Shown one piece after another: positions 16,598 through 27,088 of a DNA stretch of 64,000 bases (its first letter is position 1; every line of letters starts with the position of its first letter). The DNA lies in NCBI GenBank assembly GCA_965277405.1, contig OZ255726.1:1664001-1728000 (forward strand), written 5' to 3'. The notes under the pieces are model-generated. The model saw only the letters and a program-made list of their open reading frames with translations, was not told the DNA's origin and did not search any database. The position numbers and the translations under genes are program-made. This DNA is from Gammaproteobacteria bacterium. GTDB taxonomy: Bacteria; Pseudomonadota; Gammaproteobacteria; G965277405.

Positions 16598-17244
16598 TGG
16601 CGCAGCAGCAACGTATCATCCCATCCCATGCTGGATTAGCGCTTGAACTTAGGCATGATGATTTTGGTATGCATCCACGTGCCATGGTTGTTTGTCATCC
16701 GCTGCCTACTGCAGGCGGTTCCATGGATAATAAAGTTGTCACGACAGTCCAGCGAGCCGCCCAATTGTGTGACATGCCGTGTGTGCGCTTTAATTTTCGA
16801 GGTGTTGGCAACAGTACCGGCACCTTTGATAATGGCGTTGGAGAAACCACAGATTTGCAGTCAACTGTAGCTTGGCTTGCCAACAACAGCAGCGTTGCAT
16901 CAATCCTGCTGGCGGGATTCTCGTTTGGAGCTGCAGTAGCGCTGCGCGGTGTTGAGATGCTGGCGCTACCTGTCTGGCACTTGTTGCTAGTCGCTCCGCC
17001 AATAGGAGTCAAAGAATATGTGTTTACTGAGCAATTGACTGTTCCAGCAACAATTATTCAAGGTGATGCTGATGAAATTGTTGATGCGAATAATGTGTTT
17101 AAATGGTCGCAACGTTGCGTGCCAGCGCCACAGGTTGTGCGGATGGTTGGTGCGAGTCATTTTTTTCATAGACGCTTGGTTGAGTTGCGCCAGCATGTGA
17201 TAGATGAGGTGCTGCGACCTGCTCAGAAAACTCTGACTAAGTAG
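16597..17244 (+). CDS. Alpha/beta-fold hydrolase (COG2945-like)
   Basis: CHPLP..GGSMDNKVV, RFNFRGVG.S.G.FD.G.GE, GFSFG nucleophile elbow, QGDADEIV, HFF. Confidence 0.88.
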   Translation: MAQQQRIIPSHAGLALELRHDDFGMHPRAMVVCHPLPTAGGSMDNKVVTTVQRAAQLCDMPCVRFNFRGVGNSTGTFDNGVGETTDLQSTVAWLANNSSVASILLAGFSFGAAVALRGVEMLALPVWHLLLVAPPIGVKEYVFTEQLTVPATIIQGDADEIVDANNVFKWSQRCVPAPQVVRMVGASHFFHRRLVELRQHVIDEVLRPAQKTLTK

Positions 17245-17290
17245 CCGATGAAGTGAGTTTGTTAGCAGATGCTGTTGTTGATGCCCGCAC
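17226..17290 (-). mobile_element. Old, diverged MITE right end overlapping the hydrolase stop
   Basis: gaaaactctgactaagtagccgatgaagtgagttttgttagcagatgctg aligns with ggaagctctgattaagtcgctgatggagcgagtttgcctgcaattgctg. Confidence 0.65.
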
Positions 17291-17446
17291 CATCACGAAC
17301 ACTTCTTTATGGTAATTGTGCGCGTGGAGTTTTGCAGCGATAGCGTTTGAAATTTGCAGTATTCATCGATATAATTCCTAGCAAACAGGTGTTGTTCTTG
17401 CTGGTAACATGTATTATTCGCAATATTTTACATTTAAATTGGAGTT

Positions 17447-18037
17447 ATGGGCATTATGTATACTAATAGAATTGCTTCACAGGTATTGATTGTCGGTAGT
17501 GTTTTGCTGGCGGGCTGTTCATCTTCCCCTACCGTTCCCACGCAGGAAAAATGCGTGTTTCCAGACGCTGCGGGTGGTGATGCTCCACTGTGGGTGTGTC
17601 ATGAGCGTCTTGATGGTGGCCCAAAATTTCAAGCAATGGGAAGTTCACGACTAGGAGGAAACCGTTCACTAGCTGAGTCAAAAGCAACGGCTGTTGCACA
17701 GGTTAAATTGGCGCGGCGGATGAACAGCTCCATAAAAAACATGCTTGAAGGCTATGCCGCTGAAGTGGTATCAACCGATGGCGATGTTATCAACACAGAT
17801 AGCTTTGAAGAAACAACTCGGATTACAGTGAAGCAAAATATTATCGGCAGCCACATTATTCGAAAAGTGGTTAGTTCTAGCGGAGACGAACTGTATGTAC
17901 TGATGGTAATGAATCCTGCTGATGTTAAGGAGGTGGTAGGCGAAGTTATCGATGTACTGGAACAGGAAAATAATCTGTTAAAGGGTAAGATGAACCTAGG
18001 CAATGCAATGAAACGCCTCGATGAGAAGGTGCAATAG
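17447..18037 (+). CDS. LPP20-like lipoprotein
   Basis: Lipobox LLAGC; C.FPD...APLWVC; MGSS....LAESKATAVAQVKLA; terminal LYVLM strand; GGAG SD. Confidence 0.75.
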   Translation: MGIMYTNRIASQVLIVGSVLLAGCSSSPTVPTQEKCVFPDAAGGDAPLWVCHERLDGGPKFQAMGSSRLGGNRSLAESKATAVAQVKLARRMNSSIKNMLEGYAAEVVSTDGDVINTDSFEETTRITVKQNIIGSHIIRKVVSSSGDELYVLMVMNPADVKEVVGEVIDVLEQENNLLKGKMNLGNAMKRLDEKVQ

Positions 18038-18040
18038 GTC

Positions 18041-18111
18041 GTTAGTGCCTGCATAGTCGTTAGCGTCCGCATAGTTAGCGCCCACATATATTATATTAGC
18101 GTCCACATATA
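18041..18111 (+). repeat. Four imperfect tandem copies of TTAGCGYCCRCATA
   Basis: gttagtgcctgcata, gttagcgtccgcata, gttagcgcccacata and ttagcgtccacata in an 83-bp intergenic gap. Confidence 0.7.
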
Positions 18112-18120
18112 AATGCCGCC

Positions 18121-18498
18121 ATGCGCCATTGTTTGTTGTTTGCTTTGGTATTGCTTCTTCCATCTTGCACACTATTTCAACCGCATCCTCCTGAATGGAT
18201 GAACAATCCACCAGCAAACAGCGGAGTTGGCATTGCTGGACCGAACATAGGCGGCATTCCCGCACAAATCAGCTTAGCAACCCACCGAGCCAGTATTGAT
18301 TATGCAAAAAGGAAAGGGTATCTGGTTGAATCATCAACTCTGGTTCGCGCTGGTGCTGATGGGAAGATTGAATGGGAAGAGCTAGAGGAGAATAGCAACG
18401 GGACTATGGAGGCAACTAAAGTGCAGGTAGAAGTGCGAGAACGTTGGTACGATGGGCATACCAACTACTATGTTCTGGTTACGGCAGTGGATGAGTGA
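18121..18498 (+). CDS. Small lipoprotein, LPP20-like
   Basis: Lipobox LLPSC; PEWMNNPP..GVGIA...Q..LA..RA; terminal YYVLV strand. Confidence 0.7.
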   Translation: MRHCLLFALVLLLPSCTLFQPHPPEWMNNPPANSGVGIAGPNIGGIPAQISLATHRASIDYAKRKGYLVESSTLVRAGADGKIEWEELEENSNGTMEATKVQVEVRERWYDGHTNYYVLVTAVDE

Positions 18499-18825
18499 TG
18501 GGGTTTTAGTTGGTATTCTAACCATTCATCCAATATTGATTGTTTGTAGGTTTGATTCAGCATTCTGGCAACGTGTGTTGCAACGAAAAATGCAAGTGAT
18601 GAGTGATATTCACCAGTTTAAACGCCCAGCTAATAAGGAATCGCTGATTAAGCAGATGATTGGCATATGTCGTGTAAACCACTGCCAACGTTGTCAAACT
18701 ATTGAAATATACTGAATGTTTTCGTACACTTGTCTGTGATTTTTGCTGTCTTTGCTCTAGCATAGTCTCTATAGCGTAACAATTGTGCAGATTGATCAAT
18801 ACAACGCCACAGGAGGGGGACGTTC

Positions 18826-21702
18826 ATGCGAAACACCACACTCAGTACAACAGTAACTAGATTTGCCGTGTTCGTCAGTTGTATCCTGTTAGCCGTAGGC
18901 TGCGCTACACAGCAGGCTACACAGCACAAGCCACAGCAGGCTAGTCAACAGCACCAGCTACAGCAGGCAAAAAAACAGCACCAGCTACAGCAAGCTCAAC
19001 AGCACCAGCCCAACGCAGAGTTGCGGAACGCCACCAGAGTGGCGTTCAAGGAGCGAATCCGTGTTATTAAGCTGTTGCGCACCATTAATGGGCATAGTAA
19101 CCATGTATACTCAGTCGCCTTCAGTCCAGATGGTAAGACCCTCGCCAGCGGATCTCGCGATGGTATTCTCAAACTCTGGAATCCGCGCAGCGGTAAGTTG
19201 TTGCGCTCCATGAATGGGCATAATAGTGACATGGTAACGTCAGTCGCCTTTAGTCCAGATGGTCAGACCTTCGCCAGCGGATCTGGGGATAATACTATCA
19301 AACTCTGGAATCCGCGCAGCGGCAAGCTGTTGCGCACCATTAATGGGCATAGTGACCATGTAGACTCAGTCGCCTTCAGTCCAGATGGTAAGACCCTCGC
19401 CAGCGGATCTCGCGATGGTATTCTCAAACTCTGGAATCCGCGCAGCGGTAAGTTGTTGCGCTCCATTAATGGGCATAATAGTTACATGGTAACGTCAGTC
19501 GCCTTTAGTCCAGATGGTAAGACCCTCGCCAGCGGATCTCGCGATGGTATTCTCAAACTCTGGAATACGCGCAGCGGCAAGTTATTGCGCACCCTGAATG
19601 GGCATAGTGACCATCTATACTCAGTCGCCTTCAGTCCAGATGGTAAGACCCTCGCCAGCGGATCTCGCGATGGTATTCTCAAACTCTGGAATCCGCGCAG
19701 CGGTAAGTTGTTGCGCACCATGAATGGGCATAATAGTCACATGGTAACGTCAATCGCCTTTAGTCCAGATGGTAAGACCCTCGCCAGCGGATCTGGGGAT
19801 AATACTATCAAACTCTGGAATCCGCGCAGCGGTAAGTTGTTGGGCACCACTAAAGTGCAGAGTAACGATGTATTTTCAGTCGCCTTCAGTCCAGCTGGAA
19901 CCCTCGCCAGCGGATCTACTGATAATACTATCAAACTCTGGCAATTACCACCGAGGCTAGATGCCAATGACTTGAATAATGACTGGAATAAGTTTGTCGT
20001 CAGTTGGAATCGTGGCGACGCAGGGCTAATAGAATTGTACCAGCTACAACGCAAATACCCAGAGGATGCCGTCATAGGCGATGCATACGTCAAAGCGAGT
20101 GTCGCTAGCCCCTACGAAAGTGGCCGAGTTGCTGTTTATTTGCACCGGCGGCAGCTTGACAGCACTAGCTGGCGGACAACTACCGCCTTTATCCAACAAC
20201 TGGCTTCTGACTGGCTCAACCTTAAGGAAATAATCAAACCAGCGAAAATCATAATGCCTACGTTACCGCCAGCTGTAGAGCTGACACAGGAAAATTGGGA
20301 AGGGGATAGTGAATTCGAAACTCGAGTTGCTCAGCTGAACAAGGCGCGTCAAGCGCGGATAAACCAACTTCAAGCAGACTACAGACACAAGGTCGAAGTG
20401 CGCAACAGCAAAGTTAGCAAGCTTGAACGCCTACAACAGCAACGCCATAATCAACTAGCAAGCTATGTACAAGGCATACTTGATTATAGCCTTGAAACGC
20501 AGCCGCCAGCACTAGACAAAGTAATAATCAACCAACAAACACTTGATCTTTATGCTGATCTGGTGTTCAAAGGAACCCTTGTTGGTCGCTATAAACTGGC
20601 GCAGGCGCCACTGAAGCTGCGCAAACAGGCTATGACTAACAGCAAAAGTGTGAAAGTTCTACCAAATATTGAGTTAAGCGACACCAATGATTTTCGTGTA
20701 ACTTCAATCACTATCTTGCATGATGATCAAAGATGGCTAGCGCAGGCAAGCGAGCAGCAGCTACAACACACGAATACCCCTTTGGTTGCTACCATCGGCA
20801 ACGCCGGCGAAACGCGTGAACTGAGTAGTATCTCCCTACTGCAAAAGCAAAACCCCAACCTAGTCGATGTCAACTCAGTGGGGACGGTTCAGTACAAAGA
20901 CGGCACCACAGCACTCACCCGCTATCAAGACGATCTCACTCCGCTGGTGCAACAATTAGCCCAAGCACCAATAGACCAAAGCAAATGGCTGTTCGTCATC
21001 GGTGCAGAACGCTATCAGGAGACAGATAACATCCTTTTTGCCAGAAGAAGTGCCGAGAACTTTGCCCTCGCCGCCAAAAAATCACTTGGCATCGACGCTG
21101 GTCACACCATCACCCTCTACGACGAGCAGGCAACCAGTGGACAGATCAAAACCAAGCTCAAAAAGCTGCTGCGTGATGGCATTAGTTCAGGTGACAGCAT
21201 TATCATTTACTACAATGGTCACGGCTTGCCGGTCAGAGAACAGGACGATACCCCCTATATGCTGCCGACCGATATGATTCCCGACTTTGTCAGCGATGAG
21301 CCTTTTTTTAAACTTGAAAATATGTATGCTTTACTCGCTAAATCGAAAGCAGGCAACGCAATAGTGATAATGGACAGTTGCTTTACTGGCGGCGCGGACG
21401 GCAGGTCAGTCATCAAAGGTGTGGCAGCAGCGAGGCTATCACCAAAAAAACTTTTGATAGACAAGAGCAAACTCATCGTTATGACAGCAGGGACAGACAA
21501 GCAATACTCCACCGCCTTCAAAGACAAAGGCTACCGACTTTTTAGCTACTACCTGATTAAAAGGCTGGTAGCAAACAAACCGCAAACGGTTGAAGATTGG
21601 TTTGAATCGGTACAAAGTCAGGTCAAAACAACTTCGCGCCAAATAGGAGGCTCGCTCAGCTATCAGGATCCGCAGTTGCTGGGGAGCAATCAGCAGCTAT
21701 AG
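18826..21702 (+). CDS. Lipoprotein with Gln-rich linker, 7 WD40 repeats, coiled coil and C-terminal caspase-like (peptidase C14) domain
   Basis: Lipobox LAVGC; AGGAGG SD; seven GH...SVAFSPDG..LASGS.D...KLW units; C-terminal WLFVIG...Y, YYNGHG (catalytic His) and IMDSCFTG (catalytic Cys). Confidence 0.88.
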   Translation: MRNTTLSTTVTRFAVFVSCILLAVGCATQQATQHKPQQASQQHQLQQAKKQHQLQQAQQHQPNAELRNATRVAFKERIRVIKLLRTINGHSNHVYSVAFSPDGKTLASGSRDGILKLWNPRSGKLLRSMNGHNSDMVTSVAFSPDGQTFASGSGDNTIKLWNPRSGKLLRTINGHSDHVDSVAFSPDGKTLASGSRDGILKLWNPRSGKLLRSINGHNSYMVTSVAFSPDGKTLASGSRDGILKLWNTRSGKLLRTLNGHSDHLYSVAFSPDGKTLASGSRDGILKLWNPRSGKLLRTMNGHNSHMVTSIAFSPDGKTLASGSGDNTIKLWNPRSGKLLGTTKVQSNDVFSVAFSPAGTLASGSTDNTIKLWQLPPRLDANDLNNDWNKFVVSWNRGDAGLIELYQLQRKYPEDAVIGDAYVKASVASPYESGRVAVYLHRRQLDSTSWRTTTAFIQQLASDWLNLKEIIKPAKIIMPTLPPAVELTQENWEGDSEFETRVAQLNKARQARINQLQADYRHKVEVRNSKVSKLERLQQQRHNQLASYVQGILDYSLETQPPALDKVIINQQTLDLYADLVFKGTLVGRYKLAQAPLKLRKQAMTNSKSVKVLPNIELSDTNDFRVTSITILHDDQRWLAQASEQQLQHTNTPLVATIGNAGETRELSSISLLQKQNPNLVDVNSVGTVQYKDGTTALTRYQDDLTPLVQQLAQAPIDQSKWLFVIGAERYQETDNILFARRSAENFALAAKKSLGIDAGHTITLYDEQATSGQIKTKLKKLLRDGISSGDSIIIYYNGHGLPVREQDDTPYMLPTDMIPDFVSDEPFFKLENMYALLAKSKAGNAIVIMDSCFTGGADGRSVIKGVAAARLSPKKLLIDKSKLIVMTAGTDKQYSTAFKDKGYRLFSYYLIKRLVANKPQTVEDWFESVQSQVKTTSRQIGGSLSYQDPQLLGSNQQL
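19069..19941 (+). repeat. Near-identical tandem WD40-coding repeats (alternating 126/129 bp)
   Basis: Units start at 19069, 19195, 19324, 19450, 19579, 19705 and 19834 and share long identical DNA such as ccagatggtaagaccctcgccagcggatct. Confidence 0.95.
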
Positions 21703-21719
21703 CACAAGCCAGACAAAGC

Positions 21720-22772
21720 ATGCAATCTCCTTGGCAGTTTGTCTGTATGGCAATACTCCTAAGTTGTTGCGCCACAAACACACCAACCCTAGAATATCCG
21801 CAGTGGTACAAAAGATTACCGCAGCAGCAAGGGATAGTGATTGGCTATGGCTATGGTTTGACAAAACAAGAAGCTCGGTACAAGTCTTTTGATCATCTTC
21901 GTAACCAGCTGGGCGTCAGCGTACATTCCACTCAGGTTTTTTCTGAGTTTGAACGAATTACTAACATTGGCATTGATGAGTTCAGCGATACAAGGGCAGC
22001 AGAAGTAATTATTAATGCGGATATACACGGAGCCGTCCTGCGTAAGGCTGAGCAACGAGGCAGTTATTATTTCATCGCTTACAGCACTGATATCAGGTCG
22101 GTTCGGTCGCGTATTCTCGAAACCCCCAGTCTTTGTCAAGGAGCAAAGGCTGTCGGAATACACAGGCAGCAAAGCCTAACAGGTTTCAAGCCATTCGCAC
22201 CAATCACCCGAGATTTACAAGCAGATGGTTGCCCAGACAACTGGACTCTACAACGGCTGAATAATTCATGGTCTATTGAATTGGCGGGACACAGTTTCCA
22301 GCTACCGAATGAGCAACTATGGCGTCTTACCCTTGCTATAGACAAGACAGATGAACTTACACTGCTTGACGATAAACATCATGAACAGGAGAGTTTTCGT
22401 GCTGGTGAGCGTTATTTCGTTTCCTATAACAAACCAGTTAATAGCAACATGTACCTTTTTCTCGTTAACGAACTTGGTCAGGTTAATCTACTTGATCAAT
22501 CCGAGGCCAAACAGCTACGCCGTGAGCGCTGGTTGTACCCCAATCCCGATAAATACGCTGGTGGTTTGATCGCAGCACCGAACTCAAGTGGATCAATACA
22601 TAATGACTTAATAGTGGCAGCCGCTTGTCCTGAGACTATCCACTATCATTTTTCCTCCCTGACAAGTGCAAAACCTGACCTTGCCGATGAAAGACTGTAT
22701 GTTCTGGACCGATTGATCAAGGAAGTTGAGCATTGTTTGGTACATATGAGAAGCCTCAGGATAGTATTATAA
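21720..22772 (+). CDS. Lipoprotein with LPP20-like N-domain and DUF4384-like C-domain
   Basis: Lipobox LLSCC; PQWY...GYGYG.TKQEAR..S...L..QL.V.V.S; C-terminal FRAGERY.V......MYLFLVNE.GQV.LL...YPNP. Confidence 0.6.
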   Translation: MQSPWQFVCMAILLSCCATNTPTLEYPQWYKRLPQQQGIVIGYGYGLTKQEARYKSFDHLRNQLGVSVHSTQVFSEFERITNIGIDEFSDTRAAEVIINADIHGAVLRKAEQRGSYYFIAYSTDIRSVRSRILETPSLCQGAKAVGIHRQQSLTGFKPFAPITRDLQADGCPDNWTLQRLNNSWSIELAGHSFQLPNEQLWRLTLAIDKTDELTLLDDKHHEQESFRAGERYFVSYNKPVNSNMYLFLVNELGQVNLLDQSEAKQLRRERWLYPNPDKYAGGLIAAPNSSGSIHNDLIVAAACPETIHYHFSSLTSAKPDLADERLYVLDRLIKEVEHCLVHMRSLRIVL

Positions 22773-22869
22773 TGTTCAGGTGAAGCACTGAGTGTTGCGG
22801 TCGGATGTTATATGCAGATATGCTATGCTGGTCAACCCTGACCATTAGCCACATAACCATGAGAAAAAT

Positions 22870-24333
22870 ATGCGCATTTACCTAGCACCTGTATTTGTGA
22901 CAATCCTTTGGATTACTTCTTCTTCAATAACAACAACTTACGCTGCTAGCGATATTGAGCAGCGTAAGCTGCAGATGCAGCAGAGCATAAATAAGCAAAA
23001 AAAAATCTTTGCAGCTTACAAGCGCAATAGTAAAAACGAGTTTGAAGCCTATCGTGCCCAGCAACAGGAAACTTTAAAAAAAGCAATTAAAGAAAACTGG
23101 CGCCAATTTCAAATTTACAAAGCAGACTTCAGCTTGCTTGGCAACAAGCCGCAAAACCAACCAGCCTACGGCAACCAGGTTAAACATCAACTAGCAGCCA
23201 AATCACCAAATCTCAAAACATCAATTGTAAAACCTAGGGATGGTCATCTTTCACAGCAAAAAACAGCAAACACGCAGCCACTTAATCTGTATGGAATGAC
23301 GTTATCTATGCCTGTGGTCACGCAGCCAGTCATGTCAGCAGGAGCAGACAAACAGGCAATTACTGACTATCTACAAGTAAACCCAGATTACGAAAAAAAG
23401 TTAGTTGTGTTTGCCCGTGATACTGCAGAGCGACTCCACCTTGACGATTGGGGTACATACTTGCTGATGCGTGAAATAGCACGGCAGCTCTACCCAGATA
23501 GCTGGCAAACCAGACGCCTTGCCCAATGGAAATGGATGAATCAGCTTGGCTACGATCTGCGCATAGCCGAAACAAGCAACGAATTACGTTTACTACTACC
23601 AGTCACCCAGACAATATATGGTCACTCATACATATTTATAGAAGGCAATAAATACTATCTTGATACCCCAGCTGGTAGCGACTTGCACACCTATCCACAA
23701 CAATTTGATAAACTTGCAGCCATAGAGAATATCAACCCAACACAAGTGCGGTGGTCTGATGACAAGCAGAATATTCATGTTCGCCAGCTTGATTATTCCA
23801 ACGATGGCGAACACTACCAAATTACGCTTAAGTTCGATATACGTACACTGCGGATGATGCAGGATTATCCGCAAATGATTTTTTCTCGATATTTTAAAAC
23901 ACCTCTTTCGCCAAAACTTGAACAATCACTCAAAGATCAGCTCATGCCTGTGCTTGCAGGCAAGAGCAAATATCAGCAGGCAAGTCTGCTGCTTAAGTTG
24001 GTACAGAAATCTCTCGCCTACCAGACTGATCAACAACAGTTTGGCAAGGAAAACTACCTATTTGCCGAAGAATCTATAGGGTTTCCATATGCCGACTGTG
24101 AAGACAGAGCTATTCTGTATGCTTGGCTGGTGCATGAGCTGCTCGACCTTCCCTATCTGGTACTGCTATACCCTAACCACCTGACTACGGCCATAGCTCT
24201 GAACGGAACAGGTGACACAATTCATTATGGCAATACCATCTATCTGATAGCTGACCCAACATACATAGGGGCACCAATCGGTAAAGCCATGCATCCGCAG
24301 ATAGAGCCAAAGATTATTTATGCTTCACAATAG
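22870..24333 (+). CDS. Secreted transglutaminase-like/papain-fold protein
   Basis: Signal peptide ending TYAA; charged coiled coil; DCEDRAILY (Cys), YPNH (His) and ADPTY (Asp) in triad order. Confidence 0.65.
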   Translation: MRIYLAPVFVTILWITSSSITTTYAASDIEQRKLQMQQSINKQKKIFAAYKRNSKNEFEAYRAQQQETLKKAIKENWRQFQIYKADFSLLGNKPQNQPAYGNQVKHQLAAKSPNLKTSIVKPRDGHLSQQKTANTQPLNLYGMTLSMPVVTQPVMSAGADKQAITDYLQVNPDYEKKLVVFARDTAERLHLDDWGTYLLMREIARQLYPDSWQTRRLAQWKWMNQLGYDLRIAETSNELRLLLPVTQTIYGHSYIFIEGNKYYLDTPAGSDLHTYPQQFDKLAAIENINPTQVRWSDDKQNIHVRQLDYSNDGEHYQITLKFDIRTLRMMQDYPQMIFSRYFKTPLSPKLEQSLKDQLMPVLAGKSKYQQASLLLKLVQKSLAYQTDQQQFGKENYLFAEESIGFPYADCEDRAILYAWLVHELLDLPYLVLLYPNHLTTAIALNGTGDTIHYGNTIYLIADPTYIGAPIGKAMHPQIEPKIIYASQ

Positions 24334-24358
24334 AGCGTTGTTTTGGTGTTATACATGC

Positions 24359-24614
24359 GCTGTTGCGGTACTTGCTGTGTTGCAACCTTTGGTGTATATG
24401 CTCCGGCATGCGCCTGCGGAATGCGCCTTGCAATCATCAGCAATTGCAGCAATTGCAGCAAACCGTTGTATATTCAACAGAATGACGGGAAAAAACGCTG
24501 CGATAACGTCGTTGCAGCACTTGATAATACCACCAGTATTATCAAGTGTTGCGCTTCAGTTATCATCAGCGTGTTTGCTTAGTCTCGCCCATTATTGAGT
24601 TAATCAGAGCTTCC
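24359..24614 (-). mobile_element. Rearranged MITE copy (internal inversion, one TIR missing)
   Basis: 3' module on the + strand (24359-24450) joined at tandem CAATTG to the 5' module on the - strand, ending TTAATCAGAGCTTCC+TTAA. Confidence 0.85.
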
Positions 24615-24627
24615 TTAATAAGTTATA

Positions 24628-26491: not shown

Positions 26492-27088
26492 ATGGAAAAA
26501 ATAATATATGGGCTGGTAATTACATTACTTGCTGGCTGTGGAGCATCAACGCCAACATTAGACGAAGTGCGTGCTGTATCTGAGTGCTATTATCCAGATA
26601 CTGTAGATGTTGAAGGGCCTGCTTGGGTGTGTGATGGTCCAGTTGATGGTGTTGCGCTCAAAGCAGTTGGTGTTGCTGAGCCAACGCAGGCAGGTTTTGC
26701 ATTTCAACGCAGAATTGCACAAAATAATGCACAAATTGAGATAGCTGTGCGGGTTCGCAGCAGAGTGCGCGACATCATTCGGCAATATACTGAGCAAATC
26801 GGCAATGTGCCTGAAGAGCAAACGAATGCCGTGATTACAGTTACCACACAAACAATTACTGATGTGACGCTGCAGCAAGTAGAACTGTTCGCAAGTATCA
26901 AATCCCCGAATAATTATTTCTATGTGTTGATGGGGATTACCGATGATAATTTTAATGCGTTTTTAGATACCGCATTACGCTCTAGCATACAACAGAATGC
27001 TGATGACTGGGGAGCATTTCTAGATTTACACAATCAAGATCAGGAGTTACTTGCAAAAGAACTTATTACAAAAGGAATAGGTTCATAA
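26492..27088 (+). CDS. LPP20-like lipoprotein (paralog of 17447..18037)
   Basis: Lipobox LLAGC; CYYPD....PAWVC; AVG.A.....F.FQR..A...A..EIA; FYVLM. Start at ATG 26492. Confidence 0.75.
   Translation: MEKIIYGLVITLLAGCGASTPTLDEVRAVSECYYPDTVDVEGPAWVCDGPVDGVALKAVGVAEPTQAGFAFQRRIAQNNAQIEIAVRVRSRVRDIIRQYTEQIGNVPEEQTNAVITVTTQTITDVTLQQVELFASIKSPNNYFYVLMGITDDNFNAFLDTALRSSIQQNADDWGAFLDLHNQDQELLAKELITKGIGS

Follow-up and report, generated by a model that had tools for sequence, protein, structure and literature searches.

A predicted lipoprotein caspase with a hypervariable WD40 propeller and a conserved lipoprotein partner in a duplicated gene cassette of a gammaproteobacterium

Introduction

What most bacterial caspase homologues do has yet to be settled, and hardly any work has addressed those that are exported. 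Prokaryotic orthocaspases and metacaspases carrying WD40, TPR or Sel1 repeats have been catalogued, 46 of the sequences having an N-terminal helix that is possibly a signal peptide (PMC3501461), and DUF4384 is among the domains reported for orthocaspases (PMC7475262). DdvA of Myxococcus xanthus is a periplasmic TPR-CHAT anti-sigma factor which has been tied to defence and for which signal-induced proteolysis has been proposed (PMC11506125), and in the Csx29-Csx30 pair of type III-E CRISPR the DUF4384 domain, often fused to proteases, is one type of C-terminal domain of the caspase substrate Csx30 (10.1101/2022.08.17.504292). The WD40 receptors HET-D and HET-E of Podospora (PMC12222747) and highly repetitive prokaryotic WD40 proteins (PMC5587647) are built of near-identical blades with a few variable top-face codons and undergo blade shuffling, and adaptor domains join sensors to effectors in conflict systems (PMC10907252). 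Here we describe a locus of five genes, designated A to E, within a 64-kb window (positions 1,664,001 to 1,728,000 of contig OZ255726.1, assembly GCA_965277405.1) of a gammaproteobacterial genome that consists of one contig of 2.17 Mb and is 98% complete (G000). The central gene, C, encodes a predicted lipoprotein in which a WD40 propeller and an unnamed adaptor-like domain precede a C14 caspase domain, and gene D, next to it, encodes a predicted lipoprotein with LPP20 and DUF4384 domains. The window refers to the whole 64-kb stretch, and positions are those of the window unless prefixed C1.

C resembles the orthocaspases and metacaspases of PMC3501461 in its His-Cys dyad, caspase fold and repeat domains, whereas the available part of that survey mentions neither a partner or lipoprotein operon nor an adaptor domain or diversified binder, such as are found at C-D. 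Like DdvA, C would combine a repeat domain and a caspase-like domain outside the cytoplasm, a precedent which contradicts the premise, in a preliminary description of the locus, that caspase-like systems characterised in bacteria are without exception cytoplasmic; unlike DdvA, as the accessible text of PMC11506125 presents it, C is a C14 lipoprotein with a complete dyad and with neither a membrane span nor a cytoplasmic anti-sigma domain, and no extracytoplasmic function sigma partner was seen among the neighbours checked. With the HET-E receptors it shares internally conserved repeats with hypervariable binding positions, but in contrast to HET-D and HET-E, in so far as the available texts portray them, C has export signals, no NACHT domain, a single seven-bladed propeller and a caspase effector; it would work like these receptors and is not a member of their group. 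C-D differs from Csx29-Csx30, as outlined in the accessible part of 10.1101/2022.08.17.504292, in having no CRISPR, RNA trigger or sigma factor and in carrying DUF4384 on an LPP20 lipoprotein. A and the N-terminal domain of D share the LPP20 fold with Lpp20 (5ok8) and HP1454 (4kzs) of Helicobacter pylori, from which D differs by its C-terminal DUF4384, the protease partners being additional. A search of the literature, with supplements and subscription papers excluded, found no description of the operon or of the unnamed domain, and a profile search of PADLOC-DB 2.0 gave 0 families for 6/6 proteins, in keeping with the novelty previously suggested.

The locus is real and is an uncharacterised variant of exported bacterial caspases. 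What is new is a near-constant caspase whose propeller has been rewritten at HET-E-type top-face positions, an unnamed 185-residue domain which joins swappable binders to the caspase and is found in caspase-less proteins too, and the duplication of the whole cassette, the window copy being a strain-specific 7.4-kb insertion with ends of the insertion sequence (IS) type.

Results

A lipoprotein caspase with a variable binding face

The five open reading frames share one orientation, as the preliminary description had it, and span 17447..24333 (Table 1). All five products look exported from their N-terminal sequences. Four lipoboxes had been ascribed to them, of which those of A (Cys24), C (Cys26) and D (Cys16) match a PROSITE-type pattern; the LLPSC of B, with Pro at -2, does not, while 4/4 of the B homologues tested do. 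The single Sec-type signal that had been noted would be that of E, whose hydrophobic N-terminus, without a lipobox, ends in TYA-A. Escherichia coli lipoproteins without Asp at +2 are sorted to the outer membrane and, because none of the cassette lipoproteins has Asp at this position, the same destination is predicted for them.

The seven WD40 repeats of C (PF00400) and its C14 domain with intact GHG and DSC motifs had likewise been recognised. The C14 domain matches PF00656 at E 5e-13 and 49.6 bits against a cut-off of 21.4 (a quick search of the whole genome with this profile missed C), and His799 of the GHG motif and Cys852 of the DSC motif are unchanged in 34/34 aligned relatives. A structure model covering residues 466-958, with a mean predicted local distance difference test score of 83, suggests a caspase fold which aligns with MALT1 over 204 residues (Z 21.8, root-mean-square deviation 2.5 A); the match to the DdvA structure 8rot has Z 10.4. 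Neither a NACHT nor an NB-ARC NTPase was among the domains found in C by Pfam searches. At residues 741-743 (21046-21054), 33/34 family members have a Ser where metacaspases have the Asp of the S1 pocket, and the CARDB-caspases have Asp; given this Ser, the cleavage specificity of C may differ from Arg/Lys.

Five alleles of C were compared, namely the two genomic copies together with P0002, P0003 and P0004. Identity amongst them is 98.5-100% in the caspase domain, 81-100% in the unnamed domain and 59-73% in the propeller. For the blade statistics 27 regular blades of 35 were counted, the 8 irregular ones being excluded, and the five-residue binding faces of the 27 are all different. The blade numbering follows the register that we presume for the HET repeat (GH at 8-9); the available part of PMC4986451 contains nothing on blade register. 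The most variable positions are 30, 14, 12, 32, 11, 39 and 34, and six of these seven are among the seven listed for HET-D/E in the accessible text of PMC12222747 (p 9e-6). In the 11 blades for which DNA was at hand, the nonsynonymous difference at the seven variable sites is 0.46 against a framework synonymous difference of 0.14, a ratio of 3.3 (bootstrap 1.7-7.2), and the framework nonsynonymous difference is 0.057. These comparisons point to diversifying selection as likely on the propeller face. Assembly joints inside the WD40 region in public sequencing runs indicate repeat recombination. A diversity-generating retroelement was rejected as the source of the variation, as no reverse transcriptase (PF00078) was found in the 98% complete genome and the variable codons are not restricted to adenine changes.

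An unnamed domain with exchangeable binders

What had been called a coiled coil in C corresponds, according to the model, to a long helix within a conserved domain which spans about 185 residues and also contains a beta-sheet; this domain is referred to here as the mid domain. It has no Pfam match and no PDB sequence match below E 0.25, and its best Atlas match (0.77) is a lead only, from which no assignment was made. Kinship of the mid domain with D was also considered and found no support (probability 0.5%). Alone, the mid-domain profile retrieves 829 clusters at E<=0.001, the best 150 of which were surveyed using crude tests for lipoboxes and hydrophobicity: 108 match the caspase profile, 98 show both catalytic motifs, 60 have the lipobox pattern and 60 more a hydrophobic N-terminus (120 in total). 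The N-terminal binders of mid-caspase relatives comprise WD40, ankyrin, Sel1, Lcl_C, TPR and PQQ propellers (Pfam labelling covered 62/77 otherwise unlabelled mid proteins), and a search with residues 376-958 of C found 18 proteins, in which the N-terminal part is a WD40, ankyrin or Sel1 domain or contains none that could be recognised. In a tree of 34 rows C clusters with six spirochaete proteins (100/98), WD40 and ankyrin forms both lying inside the cluster; the tree excludes same-class members found later and hence no donor is claimed for C.

No caspase match was obtained for 42 of the best 150 mid representatives, many of which may be cut fragments, and complete caspase-less mid genes are present in G000 and in two further genomes, G317 and G361, where mid-only genes form tandem pairs. 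The gene in G000 (C1:1821616-1822623, equivalent to L097:2616-3623; E 1e-8) encodes a complete ankyrin-mid lipoprotein without a caspase, a candidate trans-acting binder for C. This caspase-less pattern fits a homotypic adaptor, which we infer the mid domain to be.

Elsewhere in the family, a spirochaete locus (L007:9518-16600) has a truncated-WD40 caspase, D and an ankyrin-caspase in tandem. Small exported Lcl_C-like (DUF1566) genes flank the caspase in the Campylobacterota loci L020, L022, L024, L031, L032, L035, L040, L042 and L049; Lcl_C, free-standing beside the caspase in these, is fused to it in other loci.

Two gene modules

Linkage was counted in 62 caspase loci from named genomes, several of them from the same genome or lineage; the close family makes up 41. 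D is present in 25 of these 41, in 23 cases within 510 bases of a caspase gene; contig ends truncate 8 of the 16 close loci without it and leave the other 8 uncut. Four more-distant caspase loci have another DUF4384-type gene directly downstream. Among the 62 loci A occurs in 2, B in 1 and E in 0. E is found in 15 of about 400 same-class genomes. It adjoins A in 8 of them, B in 6 and an MltC-like transglycosylase in 4, and G210 alone has a caspase beside it; the E of G210, the closest relative of that in the window, lies directly upstream of a caspase of the C subfamily on a 4-kb contig that also carries a D fragment. Another genome, G030, carries A-B-E without a caspase. Among the 29 metagenome E loci, an Lpp20-like gene is present in 11, and in 3 there is a CARDB-caspase next to a DUF4384-like gene; E, a CARDB-caspase and a DUF4384-like gene are linked in the Bacteroidota-type loci L072, L083 and L095. 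Four of the 9 genomes with a C-family match have E, compared with 15/399 overall (p 1.5e-4, kin not being independent).

The conserved linkage that had been expected of the locus exists for C with D and not for the five genes as one system. Because D follows caspase loci and E rarely does, the linkage counts define two modules, C-D and A-B-E, which appear to come from one LPP20-centred pool and to have been joined in some lineages. The conserved unit is the caspase C together with D; A-B-E usually stands beside Lpp20, MltC or LpoB genes and joins a caspase only sometimes.

The partners had been described as LPP20/DUF4384-like, which their families bear out. The A-family profile matches H. pylori Lpp20 (5ok8) at E 6e-8 and the D-family profile matches HP1454 (4kzs) at E 2.5e-16; homologues of D exceed the cut-off of PF02169 (LPP20), the window proteins A and D alone falling below it. 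DUF4384 (PF14326) is assigned through homologues of D (L016 at E 2e-8, over the cut-off, and L010 at E 3e-5); the window D itself gave no DUF4384 match, and its model predicts a C-terminal Ig-like sandwich. In E, the Cys-His-Asp residues noted previously (Cys410-His437-Asp462) are kept in transglutaminase order in 16/16 relatives; matches to transglutaminase profiles are weak (2/16 family members at E 0.01), comparison with solved structures gave none, and DUF553 occurs in 23% of the members of its Atlas neighbour at 0.93. Its DCED motif presumably resembles that of LapG-type proteases and E may for this reason be a protease. The match between the N-terminal helices of E and of the MltC-like neighbours is weak (best E 0.001) and was not used.

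Further LPP20-like genes were observed. At 26492-27088, 2 kb beyond the insertion and between ung and rpsA, lies a gene for another Lpp20 lipoprotein, which is more canonical and exceeds the PF02169 cut-off. A three-gene operon at C1:1053836-1056728 (L098) encodes an LPP20-like lipoprotein, an unassigned protein of 392 residues and LpoB, and a trio of an LPP20-like lipoprotein, a 392-residue-type protein and LpoB lies near E in two same-class genomes, G106 and G299.

Duplication and insertion of the cassette

The differences between the two copies of the cassette in G000 (Table 1) are concentrated in the WD40 region, D differing in 3/351 codons and E in 2/488. A second copy arising as an assembly artefact is unlikely, the copies differing at hundreds of sites and having different flanks. 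The insertion between housekeeping genes proposed earlier is borne out directly by an empty site, the joint 17223-24621 being found at flank depth in 3/3 public runs from one study. The same runs keep the cassette with copy-2 letters at 21763, 21766 and 23378 (run X3 covers 23378 only); no read spans either cassette copy, so that it is the G000 assembly which supports the duplicate as such. The hydrolase gene is directly followed by zapE in 4/23 relatives, the two best matches included, and the empty site is therefore likely to be the ancestral state. The insertion hits the last codons of the alpha/beta-hydrolase gene (17223-17244) and alters its C-terminal residues.

Ends of the IS/MITE (miniature inverted-repeat transposable element) family that bounds the cassette number about 295 left and 289 right across G000, with CTAA/TTAG target repeats, and we take the family to be IS5. 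About 35 IS copies in the genome have the full length of 1.2 kb, and in several of them a transposase frame of 319 residues is open; more than 140 MITEs of 250-350 bases have the same ends. As the four bases flanking the insertion match the target repeat imperfectly, we infer composite transposition of the cassette but do not consider it proven. A lone IS-end relic between B and C (18634-18651), present in both copies, may mark the junction of the A-B and C-D-E parts. Composition analysis did not mark the cassette as foreign.

Table 1. Positions of the genes, domains and mobile-element features in the window.
Feature	Position	Strand	Remarks
A: Lpp20-family lipoprotein, 196 aa	17447..18037	+	Family profile matches 5ok8; lipobox Cys24; window protein alone without Pfam match
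B: small LPP20-like probable lipoprotein, 125 aa, usual neighbour of A	18121..18498	+	Relatives in L005, L037, L115, L119; non-canonical lipobox
C: lipoprotein, 958 aa; WD40 propeller, unnamed adaptor-like domain, C14 caspase	18826..21702	+	
Seven WD40 blades of C, highly alike; hypervariable blade positions 11, 12, 14, 30, 32, 39	19069..19950	+	
Mid domain of C (long helix and beta-sheet; also occurs without caspase)	20221..20778	+	
C14 caspase domain of C	20977..21699	+	His799 at 21220, Cys852 at 21379
D: lipoprotein, 350 aa; LPP20 domain, linker, DUF4384 (Ig-like); conserved partner of C	21720..22772	+	
E: Sec-exported transglutaminase-superfamily-like thiol enzyme, 487 aa, Cys410-His437-Asp462	22870..24333	+	
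Sigma-70-like promoter 5' of A	17347..17375	+	11/12 consensus matches only; 13 sites found in region against 11.9 expected
Segment duplicated at G000 C1:533775-540920	17265..24449	+	95.2% over 7203 bases
Strain-specific 7.4-kb insertion between alpha/beta-hydrolase gene and zapE	17224..24620	.	Empty site in 3/3 runs
Degenerate left terminal repeat of abundant IS/MITE family	17226..17241	+	3/16 mismatches to common end motif
MITE sequence ending in right terminal repeat (24600-24614)	24363..24614	.	At least 500 blastn matches

Discussion

The best reading of these results, to which we nonetheless give a little under an even chance, is that binder, adaptor and caspase together make up a modular receptor protease in the outer membrane. 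It is quite probable that C and D function as an exported protease unit whose binder is diversifying, whilst the complete chain of sensing, clustering and cutting is put forward more tentatively. C would be lipid-anchored in the outer membrane and face the periplasm or, via SLAM, the cell surface, the latter being left open because G000 has three SLAM surface-lipoprotein exporter genes (C1:349605, 1369869 and 1378842). The top face of the propeller would bind a changing foreign or variable partner, be it a phage, competitor or host protein, and the mid domain, as an adaptor, would cluster C with other copies of C and with caspase-less binder-mid proteins; such clustering would turn on the caspase, which would then cut D, the ligand on the propeller or some other protein of the envelope. 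D would be a dedicated partner that docks C on an LPP20 lipoprotein scaffold, and A, B and E a second module of the LPP20 scaffold family, co-opted into the operon here rather than forming an obligatory effector arm. The role of sensor suggested for the propeller in the preliminary description is consistent with its hypervariable binding face and with the swappable binder domains, activation by a ligand remaining conjectural. It is possible, if doubtful, that the system is an extracytoplasmic, NTPase-free counterpart of NOD-like receptor and death-fold systems, in which diversifying binders, a homotypic adaptor and a caspase would be complemented by binders acting in trans, an LPP20/DUF4384 scaffold and an IS-duplicated second specificity.

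Several observations weigh against such a receptor protease. D is missing from 8/41 close loci in which each flank extends for 2.6 kb or more, and the recurring neighbours of caspase and E loci include no noticeable transmembrane or cytoplasmic partner for signalling. Many mid proteins are without a binder, as 39/150 of the top ones have fewer than 110 residues ahead of the mid domain. The synonymous difference at the variable codons is high too (0.51 against 0.46 nonsynonymous) and blade pairs are not statistically independent, so that positive selection is not formally shown; moreover, hotspot variability of the top face is general in highly repetitive WD40 proteins, according to the available part of PMC5587647.

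It is unlikely, in our estimation, that C is instead a eukaryote-like, substrate-recruiting surface protease of a host-associated bacterium, its propeller being not a switch but a means of directing a caspase that is always active to proteins of a host or competitor. The same propeller hypervariability, the three SLAM exporters and a genome of 2.17 Mb with many IS elements and repeat proteins would all agree with recruitment, yet as recruiters the caspase-less binder-mid proteins make little sense unless they join a complex, and the caspase family is common in Sulfurimonas-type Campylobacterota and Desulfoluna, which are mostly free-living. A housekeeping envelope protease is an improbable explanation, one in which C-D would process lipoproteins or peptidoglycan enzymes of an Lpp20/MltC/LpoB scaffold and the WD40 variation would be incidental to recombination between repeats in an IS-rich genome undergoing decay. 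The proximity of E and A to MltC-like transglycosylases in 4/15 same-class genomes and to LpoB in G106 and G299, the many relatives without any binder and the joints within the WD40 region are in its favour; drift, however, would not spare the framework (0.057) while hitting the top-face codons alone (0.46), and the patchy presence of the family (a C-family match in 9/399 same-class genomes) and the mobile second copy suit accessory conflict genes better. Least credible is the original proposal that the five proteins form a single dedicated system, with the transglutaminase-like E as an effector switched on by the caspase, for although the arrangement in G210, the linked genes of L072, L083 and L095, the enrichment of E in genomes with a C-family match and the joint movement of all five genes speak for it, E is absent from every caspase locus counted, no caspase match was found at 14/15 same-class and 26/29 metagenome E loci (many on short contigs), and G030 carries its A-B-E alone.

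For the modular receptor protease, the duplicated cassette provides a natural experiment, since one genome has two copies with the same protease and different binding faces. D is a candidate substrate, and the caspase-less paralogue is suited to testing the adaptor idea. If binding does switch the protease on, C-D would represent a receptor for immunity or recognition at the level of the envelope, and a programmable scaffold for an exported protease.

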